Made by a program: the position numbers and the translations under genes. This document shows, piece by piece, positions 11,981 to 44,289 of a DNA stretch of 54,361 nt. Numbering within the stretch: position 1 is the first letter of the stretch; every line of letters starts with the position of its first letter. Below the pieces are notes generated by a model. The model was not told where the DNA came from. It saw nothing but the letters and a program-made list of their open reading frames with translations, and made no database searches. This DNA comes from Zetaproteobacteria bacterium (GTDB lineage: Bacteria > Pseudomonadota > Zetaproteobacteria > Mariprofundales > Mariprofundaceae): assembly GCA_036985955.1 (NCBI GenBank), contig BTQQ01000001.1, forward strand, positions 1 through 54,361. The letters run 5' to 3'.

Positions 11981-13240
11981 TTAATGCGACCATGCGGGAT
12001 CTGATGCATCCTCAGGCGGAGTTGTAATGGCTTGTGCCTTTCCACCCCAGCTGGGAACTCTATACACCTTGCGTATACCTTTCACCTCTTTGGAGAATAA
12101 CAGCATTTGCGCATTTGGCGACCATGCAGGTGATTCAATGCGCCCACCCGTAGCGAGATAGCGCACATCGCTTCCATCCAGCCGCATGGTGGCCAAAGCA
12201 TATTCCCATCCCTTACGTGTAATCAAGGCAATTCTGTCTCCGGCGGGCGACCATGCCGGTGAAGTGTTATACGGGCCATTCGTACTGATGCGTTGCACTT
12301 GCCCGTCACTGATGCGAATACGGTAAATCTGGGGCGAACCGCTACGGTCGCTGGTAAAGGCAATCCATTGACTGTCCGGTGACCATGTTGGCGTAGTATC
12401 AATGTCGGGATTGTGTGTGAGTTGCCGCCATGTACGGGTTTTGATATTAAAGATATGGATTTCCGCATTGCCAGTGTGGGACAGGGTTGCGGCGATGAAG
12501 CGGCCATCCGGTGACCATTCCGGTGTGCTGTTCAGTCCCGGAAATGCGCCGAATGTACTGCGCTTGCCATTGGAAAGTTTGAAGGTTTCCAAACGTGGGC
12601 GGTTGCCTACATAGGTATTCAGGGCCACCAGACGATTGTCCGGCGACCAGTCCGGCGAGAGCAGCAGGGTGAAATTACGCCCAACCGCCTGACGGTTTGC
12701 GCCATCCTGATCCATATAAATCAAATCCGCCTTGTCACCATGTTTGCGCACATACAGGATATGACTGCTGAAATAACCGGTGATGCCGGTCGCCGCATGG
12801 TAGATATGGTTGGCGATCTGATGCGCCAGCGGGCGAAGAATCTTACCGGAATAGTCGAGGGTTATTCGGGAAAGCACTTTATTGCGAAAGGGATCATGCA
12901 CTTCGATATAGGCTTTCCAGCCATCCGCACTCTTGTGAAGGCGGGTAATGGCTAGAATATCGGTGCCGATGATACGCCAGTCGCCATAATCAATGTGTGA
13001 CTCCGTTTGCTCGGTATCCGCAAGAAAACTTAAAGGGTTGAGTATCACGAAGGACTGACTGGACTCCAGGTCATGCCGTACCACATTGCGGATCAGATTC
13101 GATGTTACTGTATCTTCAGGTGGCGCATTGACCATCCATGCCAGCTTCAGGGGCTGATATTTGGACTGAAAGATTTCAAATTCAGCAGCCTGTGCCACGT
13201 AAGGGAACAACATGGTAAGGCATACAAGAAAGTTTCGCAT
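11981..13240 (-). CDS. tolB: Tol-Pal system beta-propeller protein TolB
   Basis: Signal peptide plus repeated P.WSPDG-type propeller blades (PEWSPDGRF, PTWSPDSQW, PAWSPAGDR, PAWSPNAQM). Confidence 0.93.
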   Translation of the reverse strand: MRNFLVCLTMLFPYVAQAAEFEIFQSKYQPLKLAWMVNAPPEDTVTSNLIRNVVRHDLESSQSFVILNPLSFLADTEQTESHIDYGDWRIIGTDILAITRLHKSADGWKAYIEVHDPFRNKVLSRITLDYSGKILRPLAHQIANHIYHAATGITGYFSSHILYVRKHGDKADLIYMDQDGANRQAVGRNFTLLLSPDWSPDNRLVALNTYVGNRPRLETFKLSNGKRSTFGAFPGLNSTPEWSPDGRFIAATLSHTGNAEIHIFNIKTRTWRQLTHNPDIDTTPTWSPDSQWIAFTSDRSGSPQIYRIRISDGQVQRISTNGPYNTSPAWSPAGDRIALITRKGWEYALATMRLDGSDVRYLATGGRIESPAWSPNAQMLLFSKEVKGIRKVYRVPSWGGKAQAITTPPEDASDPAWSH

Positions 13241-29410: not shown

Positions 29411-30004
29411 CTAGGTCCAGCGCAGCCAGTGGCGAATCGTGTTTGCGATATCTTCCGGTTTACTGGTGTGGCTCATGAGTTTGTCGAGGTTGCCATCCGG
29501 GCGGACAATGATGATGAAGGAAGCATGGCTGACGGTATAGTTACCCTTCTTGTCCGGTGCTTCTTTTTTATAGCCTGATAAAAAAGATTTCGCGGCGGCC
29601 TCAATCTCTTTTGAGTTACCGCTTAGCCCCACGATATGAGGATTAAAATGCCGGGCATATTTTGCCATCACTTCAGGAGTATCACGATCCGGGTCCGTGG
29701 TGATAAATACCGGTAGAACTTTGGCCAATTCATCTGAATCCAGCAACTTGAGTGCTGCTCCGATTCTAACCAGTGTGCCAGGGCAGACGTCGGGGCAATG
29801 GGTATAACCGAAGTAAATCACGCCAACCTTGCCCAGCATATCCTTGGAAGTGACTGGGCCATCGACACTATGTAGGGAAAATTTACCATGGATATCAGGA
29901 TAATGGCTGGGAGGCATCCTGTTCATGCTGTATATACCGAAGCCAAAAAAAGCTGCGGTAAGTCCGAGAAGGATGAAAGGAAAAATGTTGCGTTTGCGGC
30001 TCAT
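29411..30004 (-). CDS. SCO family copper chaperone/thiol-disulfide protein
   Basis: Canonical FGYTHCPDVCP motif, a distal His (VSHAS) and an N-terminal TM anchor. Confidence 0.9.
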   Translation of the reverse strand: MSRKRNIFPFILLGLTAAFFGFGIYSMNRMPPSHYPDIHGKFSLHSVDGPVTSKDMLGKVGVIYFGYTHCPDVCPGTLVRIGAALKLLDSDELAKVLPVFITTDPDRDTPEVMAKYARHFNPHIVGLSGNSKEIEAAAKSFLSGYKKEAPDKKGNYTVSHASFIIIVRPDGNLDKLMSHTSKPEDIANTIRHWLRWT

Positions 30005-30127
30005 AAATAGATGGCTCCATTGATAGTGGAATGGTATTTGCGACGAAGCATATCATCGGGGATGGTTTGTTACAGGGAATGCAGCTTCGGCTAAAATAAA
30101 TGTATTATCTAATGCAGGTGAAATTCT

Positions 30128-30541
30128 CTAAAATTGTTTCAGATATTCGATAATTTCCGTTCGTTCTTTCTCAGATTTAATACCCGGTATTGCCATAAGC
30201 GTGCTGGGCTTGATTCCGGTCGGGTCTTTCAACCACTGTCCCAGAGATTTTTCATCCCATTTTTTAAAGGGGACGCCTGATATGCTGGGGGCACGGCCAA
30301 CGATGCCCTTCAGGGGAGGCCCTACTTTGCTGATATTTCTGTCCATATAATGGCACGTGCCACATTTCTCATGGGCCAGTTTAGCGCCGGGAAGTGATTC
30401 TCTTGCCAAATTTTCAAGGGTTGAACTGATAATGCCGCTTGACGGGTGTTCTTCTTTATTCTGGCCGCATGCGGCCACATTCATGACCAGTATGACAGGC
30501 AGGATTCTGATAACAAAACGGCACATGAATAACCCTCTCAT
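30128..30541 (-). CDS. c-type cytochrome lipoprotein
   Basis: Lipobox NVAAC, heme motif CGTCH and a distal Met (STLMAIPG). It resembles the cytochrome at 13554. Confidence 0.8.
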   Translation of the reverse strand: MRGLFMCRFVIRILPVILVMNVAACGQNKEEHPSSGIISSTLENLARESLPGAKLAHEKCGTCHYMDRNISKVGPPLKGIVGRAPSISGVPFKKWDEKSLGQWLKDPTGIKPSTLMAIPGIKSEKERTEIIEYLKQF

Positions 30542-30600
30542 CTCTTGATAACAATGTTCATGATGAATGGTAGCACAAAGATATCCTACATATTAGAGGT

Positions 30601-30628
30601 TTGCTTTTGGCTGTGGAGGTGCTATAAA
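30601..30628 (+). promoter_or_regulatory. Putative sigma-70 promoter of the riboswitch-led operon
   Basis: TTGCTT, a 16-nt spacer, then TATAAA. It lies about 20 nt upstream of the riboswitch P1 stem. Confidence 0.4.
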
Positions 30629-30651
30629 TCGCAGTTGAAAATTTGATCCGG

Positions 30652-30780
30652 CTTTATCAAGAGCAGTGGAGGGTTTCAGGCCCTGTGAAACTGCGGCAAC
30701 CGGCCAACGATGTTAAAGTAAAACGTCCGAGGCGTCCGGTGCCAATGCCTGCTTCCTGATTGAAAGGAAGAGCGATGAGG
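30652..30780 (+). promoter_or_regulatory. SAM-I (S-box) riboswitch aptamer
   Basis: CUUUAUCAAGAGCAGUGGAGGGUUUCAGGCCCUGUGAAACUGCGGCAACC ... GGUGCCAAUGCCUGC ... AGCGAUGAGG matches the conserved S-box blocks (UAUCAAGAG, GGAGGG, GGCCC..UGAA, GCAACC, GGUGCCAAU.CC.GC, AG.GAUGAG). P1 closes as CUUUAUC/GAUGAGG. Confidence 0.9.
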
Positions 30781-30816
30781 TGCGGTTGTCAATGTTCGTG
30801 GATTTTACGCGCATAC

Positions 30817-30848
30817 AACCTCGCTTTATTCAGGCGGGGTTTCTTTTT
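30817..30848 (+). terminator. Riboswitch expression platform: intrinsic terminator
   Basis: Stem CCUCGC / GCGGGG with loop UUUAUUCAG, followed by UUUCUUUUU. The 5' arm (ACCUC) can alternatively pair with the P1 3' strand (GAGGU), which gives an anti-terminator logic. Confidence 0.75.
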
Positions 30849-30889
30849 GCCTGTTCTTCTTGATATCTCCGGTATTGGAGCTGTTTAAA

Positions 30890-32143
30890 ATGAGCAAGAG
30901 TATTGCGCGGGCACTGAAATGCCGGGAATGCGGCCAGGAATATGACATTGCGCCGGAGCATGTGTGCGAGTTCTGTTTCGGGCCGCTGGAAGTGGCCTAT
31001 GATTACGATAAGCTGGCCGGAAAATTCACCCGTGAATTGATTGAGTCACGCCCGCAAACAATGTGGCGCTATAAGGAATTGCTGCCGGTGGACGGCGATC
31101 CGACAGTGGGCGTACAGAATGGATTCACGCCACTGGTGCGTGCCCGTAACCTGGAAAAGGCGTTGGGCGTATCCGAGTTGTATATCAAGAATGATTCCGT
31201 GTGTTATCCAACACTGTCGTTTAAGGATCGTGTGGTTTCCGTGGCGTTGTCCAAGGCGGTGGAGTTTGGCTACAAAACCGTAGCCTGTGCTTCTACGGGC
31301 AATCTGGCCGGTTCGGTGGCGGCCAACGCAGCAGCTGCCGGACTCAAGTCCTATGTGTTCATTCCGCATGATCTGGAACGGGGTAAAGTGCTGGGCGCTG
31401 CCATTTATGGAACCACGATGATTGGTATCAAAGGCAATTATGACGATGTGAACCGCCTTTGCTCCGAAATCGCCGGAAAGTACGACTGGGCCTTTGTAAA
31501 CGTAAATGTGCGGCCATTCTATGCCGAAGGATCGAAAACGCTCTGTTATGAAGTGATGGAACAACTGGGCTGGCGCGCGCCGAAACATGTGGTGGTGCCG
31601 ATGGCATCGGGCTCGCTGTGCACCAAAATTCATAAGGCCATTAAGGAATTTGTTCAGCTCGGGCTGGTGGAGGATGTCGAGACCAGAATGTATGGTGCGC
31701 AAGCTACGGGTTGTTCACCAATTTCCAAATCGGTCAAGGAGGGGACGGACCTGATTCATCCGGTACGGCCTGATACCATTGCCAAATCGCTGGCCATTGG
31801 TAATCCGGCAGATGGTTATTATGCCAATCGGGTGATACGTGAAACCGGTGGATGGTCCGAGGATGTATCTGATGATGAAATTGTGGCAGCAATGCGCCTG
31901 CTGGCCGAAACCGAGGGCATCTTCACGGAAACTGCCGGGGGCGTTACCCTTGGTGTGGCGAAGAAGCTGATTGAGCAGGGCCGTATTCCGCGTGACGAAT
32001 CAATTGTCCTGTGTGTGACGGGCAACGGCCTGAAGACGCAGGAAGCGATTGCCGGTAAGGTGGCGGAACCACGTATTATAGGTCCAAGCCTGGATGAGTT
32101 TGATGCGCTGGCTGAGGCGGATGCGGCGCAGCTGGCGGCATAA
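30890..32143 (+). CDS. Threonine synthase-like PLP enzyme with N-terminal zinc ribbon (MetM-like candidate)
   Basis: CRECGQEY...CEFCFGPLE zinc ribbon, PLP-lysine motif LSFKDRVVSVAL and a fold-type II PLP core. ATG at 30890 follows GGAG. Confidence 0.85.
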   Translation: MSKSIARALKCRECGQEYDIAPEHVCEFCFGPLEVAYDYDKLAGKFTRELIESRPQTMWRYKELLPVDGDPTVGVQNGFTPLVRARNLEKALGVSELYIKNDSVCYPTLSFKDRVVSVALSKAVEFGYKTVACASTGNLAGSVAANAAAAGLKSYVFIPHDLERGKVLGAAIYGTTMIGIKGNYDDVNRLCSEIAGKYDWAFVNVNVRPFYAEGSKTLCYEVMEQLGWRAPKHVVVPMASGSLCTKIHKAIKEFVQLGLVEDVETRMYGAQATGCSPISKSVKEGTDLIHPVRPDTIAKSLAIGNPADGYYANRVIRETGGWSEDVSDDEIVAAMRLLAETEGIFTETAGGVTLGVAKKLIEQGRIPRDESIVLCVTGNGLKTQEAIAGKVAEPRIIGPSLDEFDALAEADAAQLAA

Positions 32144-32176
32144 TGTTAAGAAACAGCGAATAACAGGAGTGATAAC

Positions 32177-32458
32177 ATGAGTGTAACCGTACGTATCCCA
32201 ACCCCGTTGCGTAAGTTGACAGGTGGCACCGATGAGGTATCGGTTGATGCGGCCAACGTGGGTGAAATGATTGAGAATCTGGAGAGCGCACATGCCGGGT
32301 TGAAGGAGCGATTATGCGATGAATCCGGCGATATTCGACGTTTCGTGAACATTTATGTGAACGACGAAGATGTACGTTTCCTTCAAGGTAAAGATACGCC
32401 GCTGGCAGACAATGATCAGGTGTCCATTGTGCCCGCCATTGCAGGCGGGAACGCCTGA
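32177..32458 (+). CDS. CysO/MoaD/ThiS-family sulfur-carrier protein
   Basis: MSVTVRIPTPLRKLTGG ... RFVNIYVNDEDVRF ... VSIVPAIAGG-NA. It closely resembles CysO-type carriers. The Gly-Gly is followed by two extra residues. Confidence 0.85.
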   Translation: MSVTVRIPTPLRKLTGGTDEVSVDAANVGEMIENLESAHAGLKERLCDESGDIRRFVNIYVNDEDVRFLQGKDTPLADNDQVSIVPAIAGGNA

Positions 32459-32474
32459 GTATTCGGAGAAAGCT

Positions 32475-32714
32475 TTGAAACAGCGTGTTTATCTGACGTT
32501 TTCAAGAGAAACGGTACGTGAACCTCTGATCTGGAAGGTAGGGCGGGAGTTTGACGTGATTACCAATATCCGCACCGCTGAGGTGAAAGAGGACATGGGT
32601 CTCGTCGGACTGGAGCTTGAGGGTACACAGGATACCGTTGAGCAGGCTCTGGCCTGGCTTAAAGCACAGGGCGTACACGTCGAACCCATCGAGCAGAACA
32701 TTATCGAAGGCTGA
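32475..32714 (+). CDS. Stand-alone NIL-domain protein
   Basis: 79 aa, starting at a TTG after GGAG. The pattern EPLIWKVGREFDVITNIRTAEVKEDMGLVGLELEG..DTVEQALAWLKAQGVHVE is typical of the NIL (MetN C-terminal) fold. It contains no Cys. Confidence 0.7.
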   Translation: MKQRVYLTFSRETVREPLIWKVGREFDVITNIRTAEVKEDMGLVGLELEGTQDTVEQALAWLKAQGVHVEPIEQNIIEG

Positions 32715-32802
32715 GCATACATTATGGCTCGGGGTTTCCTTGTGCTATAAAGTACAGTAATATTGTTGTTGAAATAATTATTTACAGCATATGAGGTGTA
32801 TT

Positions 32803-33735
32803 ATGGTTATATTTAATAATATCGCGGAAACAGTGGGGCATACCCCCCTGGTGCGCTTGCAACGCATGGGTGGTGAGTTAAAGGCTGAAATTCTATTGAA
32901 GCTGGAATTCCGAAATCCACTGAACTCCGTTAAGGACCGTATTGGCAAGGCAATGATTGAGGCTGCCGAAGCGGATGGAAGCCTCAAACCGGGTGGCGTG
33001 ATTGTCGAACCGACCAGTGGCAATACAGGGATTGCGCTGGCATTCGTTGCGCGCGCCAAGGGGTATCGCTGTATATTGACCATGCCGGAATCCATGAGTC
33101 TGGAACGGCGCAAGTTGTTGAAATTACTGGGTGCGGAACTGCAATTAACACCGGCGGAAAAGGGCATGAAGGGTGCAATTGAAAAGGCAACTGAGATTGT
33201 CAGCAAGACCGAGGGCGCATTCATGCCACAGCAGTTTGAAAATCCGGCCAATCCGGAGATCCATCGCAAAACGACTGCGGAGGAAATCTGGGCGGATACG
33301 GATGGGAATGTCGATGCGATTATCGCGGGTGTAGGCACGGGTGGCACCATTACCGGTGTGGCCGAAGTGATTAAATCGCGTAATCCCGATTTTCAGGCTA
33401 TTGCGGTAGAGCCTGCTGATTCGCCTGTCATTTCCGGAGGCAAACCGGGACCGCACAAAATACAGGGTATTGGCGCGGGCTTTATTCCGAAGAATCTGAA
33501 CGTGGATATCGTTGATAGCGTGGAACAGGTCAGCAACGAAGATGCCTTGAGTACGGCACGTCGCTTATCGGATGAGGAAGGCATTGCCGGTGGCATTTCC
33601 TCCGGTGCGGCTATGGCCGCGGCACTGAAAGTGGCGGCAAGACCGGATATGGAAGGCAAACGTATCGTGGTCATCCTGCCATCCATGGCAGAACGCTATA
33701 TGTCCACGGATTTGTTTAAAGGAATTGAAGTTTAA
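32803..33735 (+). CDS. cysK: Cysteine synthase A (O-acetylserine sulfhydrylase)
   Basis: NSVKDR PLP lysine, [20 protein letters not shown] and C-terminal ERYMSTDLF. It is collinear with E. coli CysK. Confidence 0.92.
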
Positions 33736-33754
33736 CAGTAACCGGAGGGTGTAA

Positions 33755-34579
33755 GTGATTGATTTTACAGAAGAACAAATTGAGCGCTATTCGCGCCATA
33801 TTATCCTGCCAGAGGTTGGCGGTGAGGGACAGTCAAGGTTGCTTGAGTCCAAGGTGTTTATGATTGGTGCAGGTGGACTGGGCAGTCCCGTGGCCTATTA
33901 TCTGGCGGCAGCAGGCGTGGGAACCATTGGCATCGCCGATGCCGATGTGGTGGATATGTCCAATCTCCAGCGCCAGATTATTCATAACAATGAACGTATT
34001 GGCATGGAAAAGGTGGAGAGCGCGAAAAAGACCATACAAGCGCTGAATCCGGATGTGAATGTTATTACCTACACCGAGCGTGTCACCGAGGAAAATGTGC
34101 GCGAGATTATTCGTGATTACGATCTGATTGTGGACGGTTGTGATAATTTCCCGACCCGTTTTCTGGTCAACGATGCCTGTTTTTTCGAGCAGAGAACACT
34201 GGTTTCAGGCGCGATGTTCCGCTTCGAAGGGCAAGTGACGACATTCAAGCCCCATACGGACAGGGAAGGCCCGTGCTATCGCTGCCTGTATCCCGAGCCG
34301 CCTCCGGCAGGTCTGGTACCAAGCTGTTCCGAAGCCGGGATTCTGGGCGCATTGGCCGGATCTGTAGGCACAATTCAGGCTGTGGAAGTGATTAAGGAGT
34401 TATTGGGTATTGGCAATTCCCTGTCCGGCTATCTTATGACCTTTGATGCGCTACGCATGGAGTGGCGTAAACTGAAGCTTCGCAAGGATCCGGCCTGCCC
34501 GTTGTGCTCGGAAAAAGCGACCATCAAGGATTTGATTACTTATGATGAGGCGTGTGAATTGCGCGCCGCTCAAGCCTGA
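33755..34579 (+). CDS. ThiF/MoeB-family E1-like adenylyltransferase (no rhodanese domain)
   Basis: RYSRHIILPEVG, GAGGLGS and two CxxC pairs (CYRC, CPLC). The GTG start follows GGAGGG. Confidence 0.88.
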   Translation: MIDFTEEQIERYSRHIILPEVGGEGQSRLLESKVFMIGAGGLGSPVAYYLAAAGVGTIGIADADVVDMSNLQRQIIHNNERIGMEKVESAKKTIQALNPDVNVITYTERVTEENVREIIRDYDLIVDGCDNFPTRFLVNDACFFEQRTLVSGAMFRFEGQVTTFKPHTDREGPCYRCLYPEPPPAGLVPSCSEAGILGALAGSVGTIQAVEVIKELLGIGNSLSGYLMTFDALRMEWRKLKLRKDPACPLCSEKATIKDLITYDEACELRAAQA

Positions 34580-34590
34580 GGAGCAGGAAC

Positions 34591-36924
34591 ATGGCAGCAG
34601 CTGAACCGATAAATTTCGCCAGTGAAGGCGATATTGAGGAATATGAAGCAGGATTAAAGGCATTCCTGGACGGGCGTATGCCCGAGGAACGCTTTACGCC
34701 GTTCCGGTTGCAAATGGGTGTGTATGGCCAGCGGCAGGATGGTGTGCAGATGATGCGCATAAAACTACCCGGTGGCTGTTTGACGCCCGCGCAACTGGAT
34801 GTGATTGCTGATATTGTGGACCAGTATGCTGGTGAGCTTGGCGCACCCAAGCTGGCACATGTGACAACGCGGCAGGATATTCAGGCGCATTTTCTGCGTC
34901 TGGAGGATACGCCTGCCATCCTGCGTAAGCTGGCCAAAGCTGGTATGACCACGCGCGAGGCTTGCGGCAATACTGTACGCAACGTGACATCATGTTTCCT
35001 GTCCGGTGTATGCCCCGCCGAACATGCCAATGTTAATGTGCATGCTCAGCGTTTTGCCGATTTTTATTTACGGCATCCATTGACGCAGCAATTTCCACGT
35101 AAATTCAAGGTTACCTTTTCAGGTTGTGCCACGGACTGCGGGCTTTCGGCTATGCATGACATCGGCTTTATAGCGAAAACGGAAAACGGCAACCATGGTT
35201 TTGAGGTCTGGGCGGCCGGTGGGTTGTCCACCCATCCGGTTTCGGCCATTAAACTCGAAGACTTTATCGAGGAGAAAGAACTCCTGCTGGTTGGTGAAGC
35301 GCTGATGCGCATTCATTTCAAGTATTCGGACCGCAAACATCGTGCGCGGGCGCGCATGAAATATGTATTGATGAAGCTCGGCGCTGAAGGCTTTATTGAC
35401 CTGTATCGCAAGGAACGTGCGGCTGTGGAAAAGGCGCACGGTACTGATTCGGGGTATCCCGAAGCGAACTGGCGTGAACCGTCCGGCCCGCTTCCGTTTC
35501 ATGGTGACCCAGTAGTGGATCAGCATGATAGTCGCAAGGCTGTGCTGCTCAATCTGTTCCGTGGTGATCTGACACCGGCGCAGTGCCATGCCGTAGCAGA
35601 GGCGGCACGTGTGGGTGGTAGCAATGATATTCGCGTTACGCCCGAACAGGGCGTGGTCGTTACCGGTGTTGTACCGGAAAAAACGGATGAGGTAATAGCT
35701 ATTCTGGATGCCGCCAGGATTACAACCAGGCATGCACGTGGTATTTCCGATGTGACGGCGTGCCCCGGTGTGGAATCCTGCCGGTTGGCCATTACCAATT
35801 CCTATGGACTGGCCGATACCATTAAACCGGAGCTTGAAAAGTTGACCGTGAACTATCCCGATCTTGCCGGGATACAGGTTAAAATTTCGGGGTGCCAACA
35901 CTCCTGTGGCCAACATCATATCGCCGATCTCGGGTTCCACGGCCTGGCGAAGAAGATCGAGAGCAGGGCCGTGCCACATTATCAATTGCATGTTGGCGGT
36001 TCAGGTAAGGCGGGCGAGGCTTTTGGTTATGCCACGAATCCCGTACCAGCCAAGCGTGCGCCGGAAGCGGGAATCGCCGTGCTTCGTACCTATCAGGAGG
36101 AGCGGGAAACGGATGAAAGCGTGCATGATTGGGCGGCCCGCGTTGGCAAGGATGGCATCAATGCTATTTTGGCACCATTTTCCGCCGGTGAGGGCGAGGT
36201 TGAAGGGTTGATGTATGACTGGAGCGAGAATCAGCCCTTCTCGACCAAAGATAACAAGCCGGGCGAGTGCGCCGCCGCCGTGGTTGGCATGACCGATGCG
36301 CTGGTCGCCGAGGCTCAATATGAATTGCGTGTCGGCACTGCCCATCTGGATTCCATGTTCTGGGCTGAGGCATTGGAGGGCTACAAGCAGTCCGCCATCT
36401 CTGCCGCACGAGCCTTTCTGGTCGTCTACGGTGAAAAGCCGGAGGATGATGCGCAAGTTTTTGGCCTGCTGGCTGGCCTTGCCGTGGCCGACAAGGAGGT
36501 CTCCGGCGGCTTGGCCAAGGCAACATCGGCATTAATGAACGTCAATATCGCCGATCCTGCGCCGGGTGTCACCGCCTTGCGGGATGTGGTTGAAGCATTT
36601 GTTGATCTTGCGTCCGTCCGGTTTGCACCGGTGCCTCAGGAAGAATCCAAAGCACCGGATGCACCTGCCGCGAAACAGACATCAGCCGGAGATGGAGAAC
36701 CGATTCTGCTAGACCTCACAGGTGTGGCCTGTCCGATGAATTTCGTCAAGACTAAACTGAAACTGGAAACGCTGCCGGCTGGCGCGCGTCTGTCAGTGAT
36801 TCTTGATGATGGCGAACCCATCGAGAATGTTCCGCGTTCCCTGGAAGAACAGGGGCAGAAGGTACTTGCGCAGGAGAAAATTTCTGACAGCCAGTGGAAG
36901 ATTCTGGTGGAGAAGTCTGCCTAA
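34591..36924 (+). CDS. Ferredoxin-type sulfite (nitrite) reductase fused to a helical linker domain and a C-terminal TusA/SirA domain
   Basis: Siroheme/4Fe-4S motifs are CPGVESC and GCQHSCGQH. The last 73 aa (36703-36921) read LDLTGVACPMNFVKTKLKLETL..., which is TusA-like. Confidence 0.85.
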   Translation: MAAAEPINFASEGDIEEYEAGLKAFLDGRMPEERFTPFRLQMGVYGQRQDGVQMMRIKLPGGCLTPAQLDVIADIVDQYAGELGAPKLAHVTTRQDIQAHFLRLEDTPAILRKLAKAGMTTREACGNTVRNVTSCFLSGVCPAEHANVNVHAQRFADFYLRHPLTQQFPRKFKVTFSGCATDCGLSAMHDIGFIAKTENGNHGFEVWAAGGLSTHPVSAIKLEDFIEEKELLLVGEALMRIHFKYSDRKHRARARMKYVLMKLGAEGFIDLYRKERAAVEKAHGTDSGYPEANWREPSGPLPFHGDPVVDQHDSRKAVLLNLFRGDLTPAQCHAVAEAARVGGSNDIRVTPEQGVVVTGVVPEKTDEVIAILDAARITTRHARGISDVTACPGVESCRLAITNSYGLADTIKPELEKLTVNYPDLAGIQVKISGCQHSCGQHHIADLGFHGLAKKIESRAVPHYQLHVGGSGKAGEAFGYATNPVPAKRAPEAGIAVLRTYQEERETDESVHDWAARVGKDGINAILAPFSAGEGEVEGLMYDWSENQPFSTKDNKPGECAAAVVGMTDALVAEAQYELRVGTAHLDSMFWAEALEGYKQSAISAARAFLVVYGEKPEDDAQVFGLLAGLAVADKEVSGGLAKATSALMNVNIADPAPGVTALRDVVEAFVDLASVRFAPVPQEESKAPDAPAAKQTSAGDGEPILLDLTGVACPMNFVKTKLKLETLPAGARLSVILDDGEPIENVPRSLEEQGQKVLAQEKISDSQWKILVEKSA

Positions 36925-36939
36925 ACAGCGGCCAAAATC

Positions 36940-38166
36940 ATGACGATTTTTGATAATTCCGGCCGTACCAAGTTGGCCCTGGTGACGCACGGCGTAACGC
37001 TTCCCGATGGTTTGCCACAGGCCTCTCACTGGATTTCCCAGGCCAATGCCGTGGAAACGGTACTGGATATGCGCCTTCCCAGTGGGCACTTTGCAACCGT
37101 TCCTGTAGCCCAGCCGTTTACGGAGAAGAGTCCGATTGCACTGCATGTTACGGAAGATGGATGTGAACTGGCACACGAAGGTGAGAGGCTGCACGTGGAA
37201 TTGCTTGCGGCGCCTAAATATTACCATCGGACGACACGCGCCGGTGCCCGTATGGGGAGCTTCTCGTCGCTGCATGATAAATTACTGATTTTGCATCCGC
37301 TGATGGGCTGTGGGTTTTTCGCCGATCAGGGGAAGGCCTGCCAGTACTGTCAGTATGATTCGATGCTGAATGAAGCGATCCCACCGTTACGCGATCCGCT
37401 GGAACTGGTGGAGGTGGTGCGGGCGGCGCTGGCCGAGCGTGAAGTGGACACGGTGTATCTGTACAATGGTCATGTGCCGGGGGATCAGGCGGGACTGGAT
37501 CGTCTGATTTCGCTAATTGCACTGTTGCGCCGTCACCTGGGGCATCGTCAAATTGCATTGGAAACCGTAGCGCCACGCGATACCTCCATGATCGACGACC
37601 TGTATGCCGCAGGGCTGGATGTGCTGATTTGCAATCTTGAATTATTCGATGAAGAACGATTTGCCACTGTCTGTCCCGGCAAACAGGCCGAAGGCGGTCA
37701 GGAAGCGATATGGCGCGCGCTTGGGCATGCTGCTTCGGTATTCCGCGAGGGAGCGGTTGTCAGCCACCTGATTTTGGGTCTGGAACCGGTGAAATCGACG
37801 ATTTCCGGCATGGAAGCCCTGGTGGAACATGGCGTGGTGCCGTTGTTGATTCCCTTTCGCCCATTGCCAGGGACGCCTTTGGAACATACGGCCCTTCCGG
37901 ATATGGATGCCGCCGAGGAAGCCTTTCTCGCATTGTATGACATTCTGGCGGCATCCGGTTTGCCGACGCATCGTTTGCGCGATATGGGGCGTGTGCTTAC
38001 GCCAATGGAAAGCAGGGTGCTGGTAGGGCGAGAGGTATCCTTGCCGGAACGCCTGACGTTGACTCCTGTGGGCAGAAAGATGGGTGGATGGTTCGATGCC
38101 TTGCGGCGTACACTCAGAGTACAATATACCGATTCAGAAACGGGACGGGGCGGGACAGGACACTAG
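36940..38166 (+). CDS. Uncharacterised radical-SAM-like protein with a C-X9-C-X2-C motif
   Basis: CGFFADQGKACQYCQY (C124, C134, C137), followed by TIM-barrel-like alternating segments (VYLYNG, ALETV, VLICNLELFDE, HLILGL, PLLIPFRP). No family could be assigned by eye. Confidence 0.55.
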   Translation: MTIFDNSGRTKLALVTHGVTLPDGLPQASHWISQANAVETVLDMRLPSGHFATVPVAQPFTEKSPIALHVTEDGCELAHEGERLHVELLAAPKYYHRTTRAGARMGSFSSLHDKLLILHPLMGCGFFADQGKACQYCQYDSMLNEAIPPLRDPLELVEVVRAALAEREVDTVYLYNGHVPGDQAGLDRLISLIALLRRHLGHRQIALETVAPRDTSMIDDLYAAGLDVLICNLELFDEERFATVCPGKQAEGGQEAIWRALGHAASVFREGAVVSHLILGLEPVKSTISGMEALVEHGVVPLLIPFRPLPGTPLEHTALPDMDAAEEAFLALYDILAASGLPTHRLRDMGRVLTPMESRVLVGREVSLPERLTLTPVGRKMGGWFDALRRTLRVQYTDSETGRGGTGH

Positions 38167-38167
38167 G

Positions 38168-39595
38168 ATGCCAGTCATTTTTGATAACCGGCCCATGCAC
38201 GTATTGCTGGCGCAGAAGGGACTGCCGTTTGCGGCACTGGCTTTCCTTGCGGTGATAGCATGGTGGGCGGTGGGACAAGAGGTGCCTGCCGGATTGAGTC
38301 ATTCTGGCTGGCGCGCCATCATTGTTTTTACCCTTTGTCTTGTTCTCTGGATATCCCAATTATTGCCATTAGCGGTTACTGCTATCCTGGGACTGGCTTT
38401 GCTGCCCTTACTGGATGTGATGCCGGCTAATGAAACCTTTGCCTTGTTCGGTAACCCTGCCGTGTTTTTTATTCTGGGCGCATTTATGCTGGCTGCGGGC
38501 GTGATCAAGTCCGGGCTCTCCGAACATCTTGCTCTGGCCTTGCTGGAACGGGTGGGATCAAGTCCCCGGCGATTACTGCTGGCAATGCTGTTGTTGCCCG
38601 CATTCATGGCTTTCTTTATGCCTGAACATGCCGTGGCAGCGGTATTTCTTCCGCTTGCATGGGAGGTTGTCCGGGCGCTTGGGCTCAAGCCGGGAGACCG
38701 GTATGCACAATCGGTGTTTCTTGCTATGGCATGGGGCGCCATCGTAGGCGGCGTTGCCACCTTGCTGGGTGGTGCACGCGGACCGCTGGCCATGGCGCTG
38801 GTACAGGAATTAGCCGGTAAATCATTTTCGTTCCTTGACTGGACCATCGCCGCAGCACCACTGGTTGCCGGTATGCTGGCCGTCGGTGCTGTATTGCTTC
38901 TTTTGGTTACGCCAGTTCATGGGATTGATGTTGGGTCCGTCCGCGAAACAATTGAGAAGAAACGGCTGGAATCCGGTTTGCTTAATTGGCAAGGGCGTAT
39001 CATGGCTCTGTTGATGGTTGTGACCATCATCGCATGGCTGTTTGCAGGGCATGCGGTCGGACTTGCCAGTATTGCTCTAATCAGCGTCGTATGCATGTTT
39101 GCACTGCGGCTGGTTTCATGGAAAGAAATTCAGGCAAACGTAAGCTGGGATGTGGTCTTGCTATACGGTGGGGCGATAGCCATCGGCAAGGCGATTGCCG
39201 TGACGGGCGCGGGCGCATGGTTGGCTTCATGGTTGTTGCCAGTGGGTGCAGCGGGTTTGGGATTATTATTTCTGATGGCGTTGGCGACTTTGCTGTTAAC
39301 CGAGGGGGTAAGCAATTCTGCCGCCGTGGCCATTATGTTGCCTGTGGCGATTCCGGCAGGGCTGGCTGCAGGCATGAATCTCGTGACTGTATCCATGGCC
39401 GTTGGAATTGTTGCGGGATTTGCCTTCATGTTACCCATGGGAACGCCGCCCAATGCCATGATTTTTGCTACAGGCTACGTGAAAACTGCCACAATGTTGC
39501 GCTATGGAGCTCTCATGTCTGTCGCGGCATTCACCCTGTTTGCATTGACGGTCTGGTTGTGGTGGCCTCTTGCAGGCATTGGAGTGATGAAGTGA
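38168..39595 (+). CDS. SLC13/DASS-family anion permease (probable sulfate transporter)
   Basis: Polytopic 475-aa protein with DASS-like repeated hairpin regions (TEGVSNSAAVAIMLP, MLPMGTPPNAMIF). The ATG lies 1 nt after the preceding stop. Confidence 0.8.
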   Translation: MPVIFDNRPMHVLLAQKGLPFAALAFLAVIAWWAVGQEVPAGLSHSGWRAIIVFTLCLVLWISQLLPLAVTAILGLALLPLLDVMPANETFALFGNPAVFFILGAFMLAAGVIKSGLSEHLALALLERVGSSPRRLLLAMLLLPAFMAFFMPEHAVAAVFLPLAWEVVRALGLKPGDRYAQSVFLAMAWGAIVGGVATLLGGARGPLAMALVQELAGKSFSFLDWTIAAAPLVAGMLAVGAVLLLLVTPVHGIDVGSVRETIEKKRLESGLLNWQGRIMALLMVVTIIAWLFAGHAVGLASIALISVVCMFALRLVSWKEIQANVSWDVVLLYGGAIAIGKAIAVTGAGAWLASWLLPVGAAGLGLLFLMALATLLLTEGVSNSAAVAIMLPVAIPAGLAAGMNLVTVSMAVGIVAGFAFMLPMGTPPNAMIFATGYVKTATMLRYGALMSVAAFTLFALTVWLWWPLAGIGVMK

Positions 39596-40314
39596 ACACA
39601 TCGGCATTGATTGAGTCCACCGTAGCACTACTGCGGCAAGCCAGAGACAAACATGGCGACCGTCTGATTTACCCCTGTGCCATGGGTTCGGAAGGAATGG
39701 TTCAGATTGATCTGATCTGCAAACAGGTCACCGGAATTCGTATTATGACGCTGGACACGGGTCGCCTGCCACAGGCTACCTATGAATTGATGCAGAAAGT
39801 GCGCGAGCATTATGGTATTGATCTGGAAATCATGTTTCCAGACCGGGATGAGGTTGAGGCCATGGTGCGCGAACGCGGAGTGAACCTGTTTTATCACTCG
39901 GTTGAAAACCGCAAACTTTGCTGTGGTATACGCAAAGTGCACCCGCTTAAACGGGCGCTTACCGGTATGGAAGCATGGATCACGGGACGACGCCGGGATC
40001 AATCGGAGAACCGTGCGGTAGTTCAACCGGTTGAGGATGATCCGGTTTTTGGCCTGATAAAGTATAATCCCATGCTTGACTGGACGGAAAGCGATATCTG
40101 GGCCTATATCCGGGAGCATGATGTGCCTTATAACCGCTTACACGATGAACATTATGTCTCGATTGGATGCGAATGTTGTACCCGTGCCATTACCGCCGGA
40201 GAAGACCCGCGCGCCGGGCGCTGGTGGTGGGAGAACGAAGACACCCTGGCTGAATGCGGGCTGCATGTCAGTTCACTGAATGCGGGTGAAGGAGAGGCGG
40301 GTGAGGGGATATAG
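39592..40314 (+). CDS. cysH: Assimilatory adenylyl-sulfate (APS) reductase, Fe-S type
   Basis: KLCCGIRK plus GCECC cysteines and the C-terminal ECGLH. The GTG start overlaps the permease stop (GTGA), after GGAG. The track ORF (38986) is an artefactual upstream extension. Confidence 0.9.
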   Translation: MNTSALIESTVALLRQARDKHGDRLIYPCAMGSEGMVQIDLICKQVTGIRIMTLDTGRLPQATYELMQKVREHYGIDLEIMFPDRDEVEAMVRERGVNLFYHSVENRKLCCGIRKVHPLKRALTGMEAWITGRRRDQSENRAVVQPVEDDPVFGLIKYNPMLDWTESDIWAYIREHDVPYNRLHDEHYVSIGCECCTRAITAGEDPRAGRWWWENEDTLAECGLHVSSLNAGEGEAGEGI

Positions 40315-40323
40315 GAGAAACAA

Positions 40324-41232
40324 ATGAGTGAACACAGACTCACGCAACTCAAGACGCTGGAAGCGGAGTCCATCCACATCATGCGGGAAGTGGTGGCCGA
40401 GTTTCGCAATCCGGTCATGCTTTATTCCATTGGTAAGGATTCCAGTGTGATGTTGCATCTGGCACGCAAGGCTTTTTATCCTGCGCCGTTGCCATTTCCA
40501 CTGTTGCATGTGGATACTGCCTATAAGTTTCCCGAGATGTATGAATTTCGTGAATGGTTTGTGAAGGAAATTGGTGCGGAGTTGATTGTCAGGCGTAATG
40601 AAGACGCTATCAATAAGGGAATGAATCCCAAGGAATACGGCGTGGCGCGATGCTGCGGTGCATTGAAGACGCAGGGTCTGCTGGATGCGCTGGAAGAGGG
40701 GAATTACGATGCCGCTTTTGGCGGTGCGCGGCGCGACGAGGAGCGCAGCCGTGCCAAGGAGCGCGTGTTTTCCATTCGTGATGAATTCGGTCAGTGGGAT
40801 CCGAAGAACCAGCGGCCTGAATTGTGGGATATCTACAATGGCCGTATCCATGAGGGCGAGAGTGTACGCGTATTCCCCTTGTCCAACTGGACGGAAATGG
40901 ATATCTGGCTCTATATCCGCGAAGAAAATATCCCGATCGTGCCGTTGTATTATGCCAAAAAGCGGCCGATGGTGGAACGGGGAAGTCTGCTGATTCCGTA
41001 TTATGAAGAAACAAAGGATCAGCTTTTGAAAGGCGAAGAACCAACAATGGTGATGAGCCGTTTCCGAACACTGGGCTGTATGCCATGCACGGGGGCTGTG
41101 CGTTCCAATGCTACTACGATTGATGAAATCGTGGCGGAGGCCGCTGCTGCGCGCAGAAGCGAGCGCGAAACACGCATTATCGATCATGGCGCCAATACCA
41201 TGGAAGACAAGAAGAAAGAAGGGTATTTTTAG
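40324..41232 (+). CDS. cysD: Sulfate adenylyltransferase subunit 2
   Basis: 302 aa with PAPS-reductase-fold motifs ([23 protein letters not shown]). Confidence 0.95.
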
Positions 41233-41234
41233 AG

Positions 41235-42509
41235 ATGACAGCAAATATCAATTTTAAACTCAGCCAGACTATCCAACTGCTGCGACTGGCTACGGTAGGC
41301 AGTGTAGATGATGGCAAATCAACCCTGATTGGCCGTCTTCTGGTGGATACCAAAGGAGCTTTTGAGGATCAGTTGCTTTCAGTAACGCGCAAGAAAGGTG
41401 CTGCATCAGAGGCTGAAGTAGATCTTGCCATGTTGACGGATGGTTTATCCGCCGAACGCGAACAGGGCATCACGATTGATGTCGCATACCGTTATTTTGC
41501 TACGCCGAAACGAAAATTTATCATGGCTGACTGTCCAGGCCACGAGCAATACACACGCAATATGGTAACAGGGGCTTCTACGGCCAATGCCGCCATCATC
41601 CTGATTGACGCTCGCAATGGGGTCATGCCGCAAACCAAAAGGCATACGCATATCCTGGGCCTGCTGGGAACGCCTCATCTGGTTGTTGCCATCAATAAAA
41701 TGGACATGGTGGAGTATGATCAGGGTATATTTGAGAAAATTCGTACCGATATCAACGCTTATTGTGAAAAACAGGGGATCAAGGATCTGAGTTGTATTCC
41801 AATATCGGCTTTGCATGGCGATATGGTAGTTACGCGCGGCGATTCCATGCCCTGGTATAAAGACAGAACATTGCTGGAAACACTTGAATCGATTGAAGTA
41901 ACCGACCATATCGAGCGCTTGCCGTTCCGTTTTGCAGTGCAATATGTCAATCGTCCGCAAACAGAAAATCTACCAGACTTCCGGGGTTATTGCGGCCGCA
42001 TCAATTCCGGCACTGTACGTGTCGGTGATACGGTAGCGTTATTACCAAGCGGCAAGACATCCCGCATTAAGGAAATTGTCACGTTTGACGGAAATCCGGA
42101 TGAAGCATTTGCACCACAGAGTGTAACACTGACATTGGCGGATGATATTGATATTTCACGTGGTGATATGATTGTACATTCAGACCCAATACCTGAAATA
42201 CGCAAGGAAATTGAAGGAATAGTCTGCTGGATAGGTGATGAACCGTTGGAAGTACGCAAAAAATATATCATTAAGCAAACTACGAACTCAGTGCGGGCCG
42301 TTGCAACGGATATTGTTTATCGCACCGATATTCACACCTTGAATCGAGATGATGCAGACGAACTGGGAGTCAATGAAATTGGCCGGGTGAGCTTTAAACT
42401 GGCACAGCCAATTTATTGCGATACGTATGCGGACAATCGCGCCACCGGCAGCTTTATCATTATTGATACGTTTACCAATATTACGGTTGGCGCCGGCATG
42501 ATTTGTTGA
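41235..42509 (+). CDS. cysN: Sulfate adenylyltransferase subunit 1 (GTPase, no APS-kinase domain)
   Basis: G-domain motifs GSVDDGKST, DCPGH and NKMD. At 424 aa it lacks a CysC fusion. Confidence 0.93.
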   Translation: MTANINFKLSQTIQLLRLATVGSVDDGKSTLIGRLLVDTKGAFEDQLLSVTRKKGAASEAEVDLAMLTDGLSAEREQGITIDVAYRYFATPKRKFIMADCPGHEQYTRNMVTGASTANAAIILIDARNGVMPQTKRHTHILGLLGTPHLVVAINKMDMVEYDQGIFEKIRTDINAYCEKQGIKDLSCIPISALHGDMVVTRGDSMPWYKDRTLLETLESIEVTDHIERLPFRFAVQYVNRPQTENLPDFRGYCGRINSGTVRVGDTVALLPSGKTSRIKEIVTFDGNPDEAFAPQSVTLTLADDIDISRGDMIVHSDPIPEIRKEIEGIVCWIGDEPLEVRKKYIIKQTTNSVRAVATDIVYRTDIHTLNRDDADELGVNEIGRVSFKLAQPIYCDTYADNRATGSFIIIDTFTNITVGAGMIC

Positions 42510-42516
42510 CTGTATC

Positions 42517-42566
42517 TTGACAACAACGGGATCTGACCTAAAATCCTGACCGATTGGTTGGTCAGG
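42517..42566 (+). promoter_or_regulatory. Near-consensus sigma-70 promoter plus palindromic candidate TetR operator
   Basis: TTGACA (42517-42522), a 16-nt spacer, then TAAAAT (42539-42544). An inverted repeat CCTGACC/GGTCAGG (42545-42551 / 42560-42566) overlaps the leader and SD of the TetR gene. Confidence 0.5.
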
Positions 42567-42574
42567 AGAAAGCG

Positions 42575-43192
42575 ATGGTACGGGTATCAAACGGTGAAAA
42601 GCGCATTCTGGAAGCGGCGGAAAACTTGTTTTCCAGACATGGCTTTGATGCTGTTTCCATCCAGAAAATCGCTACGCAGGCAGGCGTGTCCAAGGCTACG
42701 ATCTTCCATCACTTTTCCAGTAAACAGGAACTTTATATCACCATATTGAAGCAGGCCTGCCTCGATATTGGCACTATTTTGCAATCTCTGGAGAAAGAAC
42801 CCTGTACATCCGTTAAGCCACTGCGCGACTTCGCCAGCGCCCATTTGAAAAATATGTTCGACCAGCAGGATGTGTCCCGCCTGATTCTGCGCGAGATGAC
42901 GGATGGAGATATCAAACAGGGCCAGGCATTGGCTGTTGAAGTGTTTGGTGAACATTTTTCACGGCTGATTGTGTTGATTCAAAGCGGACAACAGGAAGGG
43001 GTGTTGCGCAAGAATATGGATGCGGCTGACGCAGCGGCCGCTATTGTGGGATTGAATGTTTTTATGTTCCAGTCATGGTCGGTGCTTCAGCATTTGCCGG
43101 CAACATCTTTTACAGATCCGGCTCATACCGGGGAACGCTGGCTCCGTTTATTGCTTCTGGGCATTACGGACAAGGAAGAAACTGCAGCATGA
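42575..43192 (+). CDS. TetR/AcrR family transcriptional regulator
   Basis: HTH VSIQKIATQAGVSKATIFHHFSSKQELY. ATG at 42575 follows AGGAG. Confidence 0.9.
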   Translation: MVRVSNGEKRILEAAENLFSRHGFDAVSIQKIATQAGVSKATIFHHFSSKQELYITILKQACLDIGTILQSLEKEPCTSVKPLRDFASAHLKNMFDQQDVSRLILREMTDGDIKQGQALAVEVFGEHFSRLIVLIQSGQQEGVLRKNMDAADAAAAIVGLNVFMFQSWSVLQHLPATSFTDPAHTGERWLRLLLLGITDKEETAA

Positions 43193-44289
43193 TATGGCGA
43201 GTGGCGCTGATCATGTTCATTTCGTTGATCTCTGCATGTGGAAGTGAAAAAACGGATATTCCGGCAACGATAAGAACCGTCAATATTACGACTCGGACGG
43301 CAGAGCTTCGGGATGTGCAAATCATGGAATCCGCTGTCGGCAGGATACTGAATCCACGTTCGGTCACCGTATCGGCTGAAGTGCCGGCGAAGGTCGCGTG
43401 GATTGGCGTGGATGTTGGTAGCCCCGTTAATAAAAACGATGTGCTGGTACGTCTGGTCAGCAACGATTTCAAGGAGCAGGCAACAGCCGCCAAGGCAAAA
43501 ATCGCCAGTCTGGAGGCCAGAATACCAGCCCAGAGACGTCTGGTGCAGCGATACCGGAAACTTGCTGCCGACCAGTTTGTTTCACCTACCATGCTGGATC
43601 AATCGGAAGCGGAACTGGCCACGCTCATACAATCAAAACGTGCCTCTGTGGCCGAATATGCACGAGCCCGGCTGAATGTAGCGCACACCGTCGTAAGGGC
43701 ACCCATATCCGGGCAGGTGCAACAGCGCTTCATTGCCGCAGGTGATTATGTAAAAGTCGGGATGCGACTGGTTGATATTGTGGCTGGTGGCCGACTCACC
43801 ATCAGCCTTCCATTTCCGGAAACCAAAGCAGGCGTGATACGTGTGGGACAAAATGTTCGCCTGATCCTGCCATCGGGCGGGCAGGTTCTGCACGCACTCA
43901 TCCGTGATCTGTCCCCCATGATTGGCCAGAGTTCCGGTGCGTTCGAGGCACGGCTCGAAGTAACAAATCCCGGTGGCTGGCGGCCTGGTGGCAGCGTGTT
44001 CGCTGACGTTCAGGTTGCGGAGCACAAGCAGGCTGTCGTGGTTCCCGATGCCAGTGTGGTTCTGCGGCCGAGGGGTGAGGTGGTGTATGTCATTAGCAAT
44101 GGAAAAGCCTCTGAACGGCCCGTACGAAGTGGCGTACATACAGATGGCGGCGTGGAAATTGTTCGCGGGCTTAAAGCGGGTGAAACCGTTGCTGTGGATG
44201 GTGCTTCATTCCTGAGCAGCGGCGCAGCCGTTCATGTCATCCATGCCGGAAACAGATCTTCGGAAAAAGAAGATAAAGTAAGCGAATAA
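43189..44289 (+). CDS. RND efflux periplasmic adaptor (membrane fusion) lipoprotein
   Basis: Lipobox LISAC and coiled-coil/lipoyl/beta-barrel segments. ATGA overlap with the TetR stop. Confidence 0.88.
   Translation: MIWRVALIMFISLISACGSEKTDIPATIRTVNITTRTAELRDVQIMESAVGRILNPRSVTVSAEVPAKVAWIGVDVGSPVNKNDVLVRLVSNDFKEQATAAKAKIASLEARIPAQRRLVQRYRKLAADQFVSPTMLDQSEAELATLIQSKRASVAEYARARLNVAHTVVRAPISGQVQQRFIAAGDYVKVGMRLVDIVAGGRLTISLPFPETKAGVIRVGQNVRLILPSGGQVLHALIRDLSPMIGQSSGAFEARLEVTNPGGWRPGGSVFADVQVAEHKQAVVVPDASVVLRPRGEVVYVISNGKASERPVRSGVHTDGGVEIVRGLKAGETVAVDGASFLSSGAAVHVIHAGNRSSEKEDKVSE

Follow-up and report, generated by a model that had tools for sequence, protein, structure and literature searches.

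A SAM-I riboswitch heads a conserved eleven-gene row for sulfur assimilation in the Zetaproteobacteria

We analysed a 54,361-nt stretch of contig BTQQ01000001.1 (GenBank assembly GCA_036985955.1, from a member of the Mariprofundaceae, Zetaproteobacteria), referred to throughout as the window, in which eleven consecutive plus-strand genes of sulfur assimilation stand behind a single S-adenosylmethionine (SAM) riboswitch of the SAM-I type. This feature is a real, class-wide operon-like unit, in which promoter, riboswitch, terminator and gene order recur across the Zetaproteobacteria. Our preferred reading is that one promoter, gated by the SAM-I riboswitch, serves all eleven genes, and that their products make both cysteine and homocysteine; we give this a probability of roughly 55%. 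Gating of the whole row by SAM, as read from the sequence, is the best-supported account of its transcription, and is plausible but unproven.

Results

A riboswitch-led row of eleven genes

The leader of the row contains three elements:

30601-30628, plus strand: promoter of the row, read from the sequence, with -35 element TTGCTT at 30601-30606, a 16-nt spacer and extended -10 element TGcTATAAA at 30620-30628
30651-30781, plus strand: SAM-I (S-box) riboswitch aptamer, Rfam RF00162, 74.6 bits against a gathering score of 44.4, E 1e-15, covering positions 1-108 of the 108-position model
30772-30849, plus strand: expression platform, in which an antiterminator competes with a terminator hairpin (30817-30841) that is followed by a T-run (to 30849)

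RF00162 is the sole Rfam match in the window. A terminator scan gave the arms of the hairpin as AACCTCGCTT and AGGCGGGGTT, while RNAfold, applied to the 3' part of the leader, paired the 3' strand of the aptamer's P1 helix (GCGAUGAGGU) with the terminator's 5' side (at ACCUCGCUU) and so produced the antiterminator. These elements are widely conserved among related loci. A nhmmer search found the riboswitch sequence once per locus, directly 5' of the first gene, in about 60 loci, and in all seven relatives tested with the Rfam model, four cultured strains included (Mariprofundus ferrooxydans PV-1, M. erugo, M. sp. KV and M. micogutta being those named), one aptamer per locus exceeded the gathering score, at 59-75 bits. 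The terminator hairpin is present in 62 of 62 leaders of relatives, where the changes in its arms are compensatory (for example AACCTCGC/GCGGGGTT, AACCTTCGC/GCGGAGGTT and AGCCTTCGC/GCGGAGGCT). Some 30 nt upstream of the aptamer, about 60 Zetaproteobacterial loci carry TTGC(G/T)T-N16-18-(G/T)ATAA(T/A) at the matching place, and the sigma-70 score upstream of the riboswitch averages 10.6 compared to 8.2 in shuffled sequence, reaching 10 or more in 53 of 60 loci. Rfam searches of the window and the seven relatives found no second riboswitch or other known cis-regulatory RNA in the cluster. We therefore take the leader to be a genuine transcription-terminating SAM-I riboswitch, for which a response to SAM is predicted from the sequence.

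The leader would operate as follows. A single conserved sigma-70 promoter would start a transcript with the riboswitch at its 5' end. With SAM bound, the P1 helix would keep its 3' strand, the terminator (30817-30849) would form and transcription would stop; when SAM is low, the P1 3' strand would instead pair with the terminator's 5' arm, and RNA polymerase would read on. The next 11.7 kb lack a terminator, and polymerase would most likely read through all eleven genes.

Downstream of the leader, eleven plus-strand open reading frames (ORFs) extend from 30890 to 42509. Domains were assigned from Pfam and NCBIfam profile searches:

30890-32143, plus strand: metM-like gene; ThrC-family pyridoxal phosphate (PLP) enzyme with an N-terminal CxxC...CxxC zinc ribbon; PALP 232 bits, TIGR00260 286 bits
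32177-32458, plus strand: metO-like sulfur carrier of ThiS/MoaD/SAMP fold, 93 aa; PF02597 62.7 bits; ends ...SIVPAIAGG-NA
32475-32714, plus strand: free-standing NIL-domain protein, 79 aa, TTG start; PF09383 53.4 bits
32803-33735, plus strand: cysK, O-acetylserine sulfhydrylase A type; TIGR01139 460 bits against a cut-off of 351
33755-34579, plus strand: E1 adenylyltransferase, ThiF/MoeB family, 274 aa; PF00899 280 bits
34591-36924, plus strand: SiR-TusA, a NirA-type sulfite reductase (SiR) hemoprotein with a C-terminal TusA domain (residues 707-775, active-site CPM); NIR_SIR, NIR_SIR_ferr and TusA matches
36940-38166, plus strand: variant radical-SAM protein, 408 aa; NF045502 182 bits, PF04055 35.4 bits; Cx9Cx2C at C124/C134/C137
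38168-39595, plus strand: DASS/SLC13 anion symporter; PF00939 189.5 bits, TIGR00785 258 bits
39592-40314, plus strand: cysH, Fe-S type adenosine 5'-phosphosulfate (APS) reductase; TIGR02055 247.8 bits against a cut-off of 235.3; CC...CxxC and ECGLH motifs
40324-41232, plus strand: cysD, ATP sulfurylase small subunit; PF01507 180 bits
41235-42509, plus strand: cysN, ATP sulfurylase GTPase subunit, 424 aa; TIGR02034 549 bits

The gaps between these genes were recomputed as 33, 16, 88, 19, 11, 15, 1, -4, 9 and 2 nt, exactly the spacing of eleven co-directional genes described in an earlier note on this DNA. Nine of the ten junctions measure 19 nt or less, and some overlap or lie 1-2 nt apart, as is typical of translational coupling. 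The metabolic steps named in that note were also right, but its list omitted the radical-SAM gene at 36940-38166 and ran in an order that differs from the real gene order (metM-like, metO-like carrier, NIL, cysK, E1, SiR-TusA, variant radical SAM, DASS, cysH, cysD, cysN).

The gene order is conserved across the class

Comparative genomics of the cluster, proposed in the earlier note as a check, showed the eleven-gene order to be conserved across the Zetaproteobacteria. A scan of one genome per species yielded 80 loci. Homologues of the first gene are 80-98% identical within the Zetaproteobacteria (Mariprofundaceae), and CysD is 85-99% identical among relatives. All Zetaproteobacterial loci long enough to show it have the same gene order, including those of M. 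ferrooxydans PV-1 (L051), M. erugo (L040), M. micogutta (L056) and strain KV (L033), and the promoter, riboswitch and terminator are likewise kept across about 60 related loci. In eight loci (L015, L019, L029, L036, L040 from M. erugo, L043, L053 and L063) there is no cysH between DASS and cysD, and the genomes concerned either encode APS reduction outside the riboswitch-led row or lack it.

Sulfate reduction and cysteine synthesis

The cluster contains a complete set for the APS route: CysD, a CysN without kinase, an Fe-S type APS reductase and a siroheme sulfite reductase. CysN covers only positions 18-430 of the 632-position bifunctional CysN/CysC model, so there is no APS-kinase domain. 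In the translation of SiR a CxxxxxC...CxxxC motif is readable. Both halves of SiR contain cysteine motifs, and some 170 residues between the SiR core and TusA (about 530-700) have no Pfam match. From what is known of these enzyme families, an anion, presumably sulfate, would be taken up by the DASS protein with its radical-SAM partner; CysDN would convert it to APS, CysH would reduce APS to sulfite and a ferredoxin-type SiR would reduce sulfite to sulfide, from which CysK, with O-acetylserine, would make cysteine. The best solved relatives of CysK are 3zei (an O-acetylserine sulfhydrylase) and 2q3b (a cysteine synthase A, which we take to be M. tuberculosis CysK1), at about 410 bits each. The possibility that CysK is of the carrier-dependent CysM type was considered and rejected, given that it passes the cysK equivalog cut-off and not those of CysM, and that its relatives are standard O-acetylserine sulfhydrylases. 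Domain scans of the 54-kb window found no cysE, thrB or cysB/LysR-type regulator, and the genes for siroheme synthesis lie outside the window.

A probable carrier-based route to homocysteine

By analogy with related systems, the metM-like product is predicted to be a homocysteine synthase that uses O-phosphohomoserine and the thiocarboxylate of a carrier protein. In related loci its gene is always followed by a carrier gene and always preceded by a SAM riboswitch, which is also found 5' of MetM homologues in deltaproteobacterial, verrucomicrobial and Gemmataceae metagenome-assembled genomes (MAGs). The E1 would adenylate the MetO carrier, whose thiocarboxylation would then probably proceed by way of SiR's fused TusA domain; MetM would combine the thiocarboxylate with O-phosphohomoserine to give homocysteine.

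The E1 has no rhodanese domain: its alignment with PRK08762, a model that includes one, is confined to positions 121-384, and the missing function is probably supplied by TusA. According to Iyer, Burroughs and Aravind (2006), an E1 that lacks rhodanese never occurs without SirA (that is, TusA) in neighbourhoods of carrier and sulfate-assimilation genes. Three observations together point to TusA as the stand-in for rhodanese: this pattern; deltaproteobacterial MAGs in which a free TusA and a small SiR-like protein separate MetM from MetO; and the invariance of the CPM cysteine of TusA. That cysteine is conserved, and the SiR-TusA fusion intact, in 40 of 40 complete relatives.

At its C-terminus the carrier extends beyond GG by 0-7 variable residues in relatives (78 loci), mostly C, R or K, and by NA in the window (32447-32458). 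A C-terminal processing peptidase is hence needed, and this enzyme would also have to hydrolyse the MetO-homocysteine adduct to set homocysteine free.

Every Zetaproteobacterial locus has the NIL gene at this place. Carrier and NIL form one 171-aa ORF (11833-12348), with ThiS and NIL matches, in the deltaproteobacterial MAG L067, and in L068 (about 4346-4858) they share a reading frame, from which a fusion is suggested; such fusion links NIL functionally to the carrier. The L067 protein places NIL after the GG motif, in the manner of a ubiquitin-fusion precursor.

One transcript or several

A terminator scan of 30000-43500 found 13 terminator-like sites compared to 13.9 expected from shuffles. 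Those on the plus strand are intragenic, except for two overlapping matches in the leader, and none falls in the gaps between the eleven genes, which agrees with the earlier note's statement that no terminator is visible before the next (TetR) unit. Among relatives a strict terminator occurs in 12 of 231 internal gaps of at least 40 nt (about 3 expected), compared to 62 of 62 leaders. We also scored the best sigma-70-like site in each internal gap of at least 50 nt in Zetaproteobacterial loci; means were 8.0-8.5 at eight of nine junction types, against 8.1-8.7 for shuffles, and 9.2 against 8.07 in the gaps between SiR and radical SAM (n=5). The conserved leader and gene order, internal gaps that score for promoters much as shuffles do, and the scarcity of terminators are most simply read as the marks of one long SAM-gated transcript. 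The proposal of a SAM-gated super-operon in the earlier note is thus borne out in its riboswitch, terminator, promoter and conserved order, while its single gated transcript is plausible and an internal entry before cysK is suggested. Its tie of all sulfur acquisition to the SAM pool goes further than the window supports: cysE, siroheme synthesis, a JAB/Mec peptidase and any cysB would be encoded outside it, and eight relatives have no cysH in the cluster.

That entry would lie in the longest gap of the row:

32715-32802, plus strand: NIL-cysK gap, 88 nt; holds GTGCTATAAA at 32742-32751, a candidate extended -10 element

The 10-mer GTGCTATAAA is identical to the extended -10 element of the main promoter and occurs at two places only in 54 kb, the main -10 and this gap, where 0.11 are expected and none of 100 shuffles reaches two. 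The gap also contains a block 5' of cysK that is conserved in the window's subclade, AAAGTACAG...TTGTT...AACA...GAGGTGT, of which the TTGTT-N-AACA part has dyad symmetry (region 32742-32802); from its sequence the block may be a protein-binding site. The alternative that it is a structured RNA was rejected, RNAalifold having predicted no pairs and no consensus structure. What the earlier note had allowed for, a promoter in the 88-nt gap, is positively suggested by the repeated 10-mer and the block, and a SAM-independent entry before cysK is a plausible candidate in the window's strain. A second start at GTGCTATAAA would probably add basal expression of the last eight genes; since the NIL-cysK junction has no terminator, riboswitch-controlled transcripts should still enter cysK.

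A side observation concerns this gap. L001, a 3.3-kb contig of Logan run DRR500112 whose proteins are 99-100% identical to the window's, begins within the leader just 5' of the terminator and ends in the E1 gene; if run DRR500112 is RNA, L001 is direct evidence of transcription across the NIL-cysK gap.

Several points weigh against a single SAM-gated operon that makes both amino acids. A consensus promoter scan is blind to activator-dependent promoters of the CysB type, and the subclade-conserved block 5' of cysK is a sign of separate control. In many relatives the gaps measure 100-300 nt and contain long palindromes that possibly affect transcription or mRNA stability. As to the pathway, a Prok-JAB (JAB/Mec peptidase) domain was not found in the 47 ORFs scanned across the window, the cluster included; the peptidase may be encoded elsewhere in the genome, and JAB genes are present in the equivalent non-Zetaproteobacterial clusters L064 and L067. 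The radical-SAM protein is without an assigned role in the pathway model. Finally, CysK is of the standard sulfide-using type, for which at least some of the sulfide made by SiR must be set free, and this weakens a strict channelling model.

The long inverted repeats in the gaps of Mariprofundus are GC-poor and of a shared type (for example CACCACAAAGACACAGAGGCACAAAG...CTTTGTGCC...GTGGTG; found in the NIL-cysK gaps of L015, L018, L033, L039, L058, L063 and others), and resemble REP-like elements inserted between operon genes.

A rival account, possible in our view but doubtful, divides the row into two regulatory units: the riboswitch would effectively control metM, metO and NIL only, and a separate promoter within the 88-nt gap would account for most expression of cysK to cysN, perhaps governed by a protein that senses sulfur or cysteine and binds the TTGTT...AACA block, so that sulfate assimilation would not be tied to SAM. 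The recurrence of GTGCTATAAA speaks for this account, as do the subclade-conserved block and its lack of RNA structure, which is expected of a DNA site; furthermore, the cysH operon of Bacillus subtilis, which is preceded by an S-box, is reportedly regulated mainly at initiation and not by its leader. The candidate promoter, however, has a poor -35 region (TGGCTC), no regulator gene is adjacent, and read-through from the riboswitch-controlled promoter would still reach cysK in the absence of a terminator. In L050, L052, L017, L010 and L012, moreover, the NIL-cysK gap is 1-33 nt, which leaves no room for a promoter, and across about 48 loci the promoter score of this gap (8.33) is no higher than that of shuffles (8.48).

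It is improbable that the row is a conserved neighbourhood and not an operon, transcribed as short messages from several promoters invisible to the scan and held in order by co-inheritance or complex assembly. It would suit such an arrangement that five junctions have median gaps of 59-101 nt in relatives, that many gaps contain palindromic elements, and that eight loci lack cysH, which shows that the row tolerates rearrangement. Against it stand the close spacing in the window (nine of ten junctions at 19 nt or less, two overlapping or 1-2 nt apart as in translational coupling), strict colinearity over the whole class, terminators that are rare in the gaps yet universal in the leader, and the detection of a single strong conserved promoter. 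Least credible of all is that the first gene encodes an ordinary threonine synthase, with the carrier, E1 and TusA serving, for example, molybdopterin or thiamine synthesis and the row making cysteine but no homocysteine: the NCBIfam thrC cut-off is indeed passed (TIGR00260, 286 bits compared to 167) and the best solved relatives are threonine synthases, but the gene is preceded by a SAM riboswitch, not a threonine signal, in five phylum-level lineages, a ThiS-like carrier is always adjacent, and domain scans of the window found no MoaE, ThiG or ThiH partners.

The radical-SAM/DASS pair

Between SiR-TusA and cysH the row includes a variant radical-SAM gene and a DASS gene. The Cx9Cx2C of the former is a non-canonical three-cysteine motif, nearly invariant in the alignment. 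A PDB sequence search with the protein gave no significant match, and a fold search with its AF2 model (pLDDT 85.7) gave only generic radical-SAM neighbours, the barrel being nearest to HydE, BioB, LipA and ThiH. The DASS protein is presumed, from its sequence family, to import sulfate. In 26 of 37 Zetaproteobacterial loci the two form a single fused ORF (894 aa in PV-1, L051 16456-19140), whereas in the window's subclade the two genes are distinct, with 1 nt between them.

A full-library search returned 1168 representative relatives of the radical-SAM protein, the nearest outside the Zetaproteobacteria being about 30-35% identical, and one (P0199) being a JAB-radical-SAM fusion. Five genomic contexts were examined (including L083-L086), from Binatia, deltaproteobacterial MAGs and unclassified metagenome contigs. 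In all five, a ThiS-like carrier adjoins the radical-SAM gene, accompanied by E1, JAB or both; in four the radical-SAM gene is followed directly by DASS, and two also contain a MetM-like gene and a second PLP enzyme, to which one adds NIL. The Pseudomonadota MAG L064 has the order JAB-MetO-radical SAM-DASS. On the evidence of this recurrence beside carrier genes in other phyla, we regard the pair as a conserved, uncharacterised member of carrier-based sulfur assimilation, and we found no publication on it.

Tentatively, and with more doubt than confidence, we suggest that radical SAM and DASS form an undescribed two-part unit of carrier-protein sulfur assimilation, either a gate or a sulfur-mobilizing enzyme, and not a plain sulfate permease. 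As a gate, the radical-SAM domain may regulate the transporter by sensing SAM or Fe-S, which would place sulfur entry under SAM control a second time, at the protein level; as an enzyme, it may be a new sulfur-mobilizing activity that feeds the MetO-type carrier. If this is true, the pair and the SiR-TusA fusion could hand sulfur from protein to protein along the assimilation route.

Surroundings of the row

Downstream of cysN, a TetR gene and an RND efflux set follow a promoter, TTGACA-16-TAAAAT (42517-42544). Just 3' of this strong promoter, a near-perfect inverted repeat (TCCTGACC-GATTGGTT-GGTCAGGA, 42544-42567) overlaps the TetR start codon and is, to judge by its sequence, probably the TetR operator. 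With no plus-strand terminator between cysN and this repeat, operon transcripts may run into the TetR-RND genes. The rest of the window contains genes for cytochrome oxidase, copper chaperones, NnrS, transporters and a Ser/Thr kinase, among others. A 586-aa ORF at 3870-5630, with an isocitrate/isopropylmalate dehydrogenase domain and a C-terminal DUF1451 zinc ribbon, represents an unusual fusion or, alternatively, two genes that share a frame.

Discussion

SAM-gated sulfur assimilation has precedents, and its individual parts are known. SAM riboswitches ahead of methionine genes are standard, deltaproteobacteria included; cysteine biosynthesis is listed among the functions of genes regulated by RNA motifs, and a role in cysteine or methionine metabolism has been suggested for unassigned genes that SAM riboswitches control in Bacillales, Clostridiaceae and Chloroflexi. 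In B. subtilis, the cysH operon is said to have an S-box leader, which reportedly contributes little to regulation. That operon, like the Zetaproteobacterial row, sets genes of sulfate uptake, activation and reduction behind a SAM-I-type leader, but it belongs to a Firmicute and not a proteobacterium, and lacks a carrier/MetM module, SiR and cysK.

Ubiquitin-like sulfur carriers are equally familiar. In the CysO-CysM-Mec-MoeZ system of M. tuberculosis, an E1-thiocarboxylated carrier is used by a PLP enzyme and linked to sulfate assimilation, as here; the PLP partner in the Zetaproteobacteria is instead predicted to make homocysteine, the CysK is of standard type and no Mec peptidase is found in the window. 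In methanogens, MA1821/MA1822 couple a ThrC-like enzyme genetically to a NIL-ferredoxin for homocysteine synthesis, with aspartate semialdehyde as substrate where our model presumes O-phosphohomoserine; the NIL protein of the window has 79 aa and no ferredoxin domain, and is accompanied by a ThiS-like carrier and E1.

The closest parallel is the MetM/MetO thiocarboxylate route to homocysteine of Streptomyces albulus, with a SAM riboswitch 5' of metM (Hasebe et al. 2024, as described in the GapMind 2026 preprint and in PMC12172450). By these accounts, both systems pair a ThrC-like PLP gene with an adjacent ThiS-like carrier gene behind a SAM riboswitch, use an E1 to activate the carrier, and have residues after the carrier GG that require C-terminal maturation. 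In the Zetaproteobacteria, unlike S. albulus, the pair heads an eleven-gene row that also encodes every step of sulfate reduction; the E1 has no counterpart of MoeZ's rhodanese domain, a TusA fused to SiR being present instead; there is no Mec/JAB peptidase nearby; and the NIL protein and the radical-SAM/DASS pair are added.

A second parallel is class 4e of Iyer, Burroughs and Aravind (2006), in which ThiS/MoaD, JAB, E1 and SirA stand with sulfate-assimilation genes in Wolinella, Geobacter metallireducens and several Firmicutes. There too, a carrier and a rhodanese-less E1 with SirA/TusA lie beside a sulfate transporter, ATP sulfurylase, (P)APS reductase and sulfite reductase, and the sulfur of sulfate is predicted to end on the carrier. 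The HcyS/HcyF/HcyD/MetY pathway of Wolinella is a related case. The Zetaproteobacterial row differs from both in having the ThrC-like MetM in place of an O-acetylhomoserine sulfhydrylase, TusA fused to SiR, no JAB, a DASS and not an ABC transporter, no APS kinase, and a SAM riboswitch at its head.

What is new is the union of all these parts in one riboswitch-led row of eleven genes, conserved across a proteobacterial class; new also are the replacement of O-acetylhomoserine sulfhydrylase by MetM, the SiR-TusA fusion, the absence of JAB and, as the most novel element, the radical-SAM/DASS pair. Two main Zetaproteobacterial genome papers contain no discussion of sulfur assimilation, and our analysis defines such a system for the whole class of these marine iron-oxidizing bacteria. 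It extends the recently described MetM/MetO homocysteine route to the Proteobacteria, and offers a case in which the expression of a complete pathway for assimilating one element may depend on a single metabolite-sensing RNA. A conserved pair of radical-SAM protein and anion transporter accompanies ubiquitin-like sulfur carriers in at least three lineages, and it is this unit that we consider the lead most worth following.

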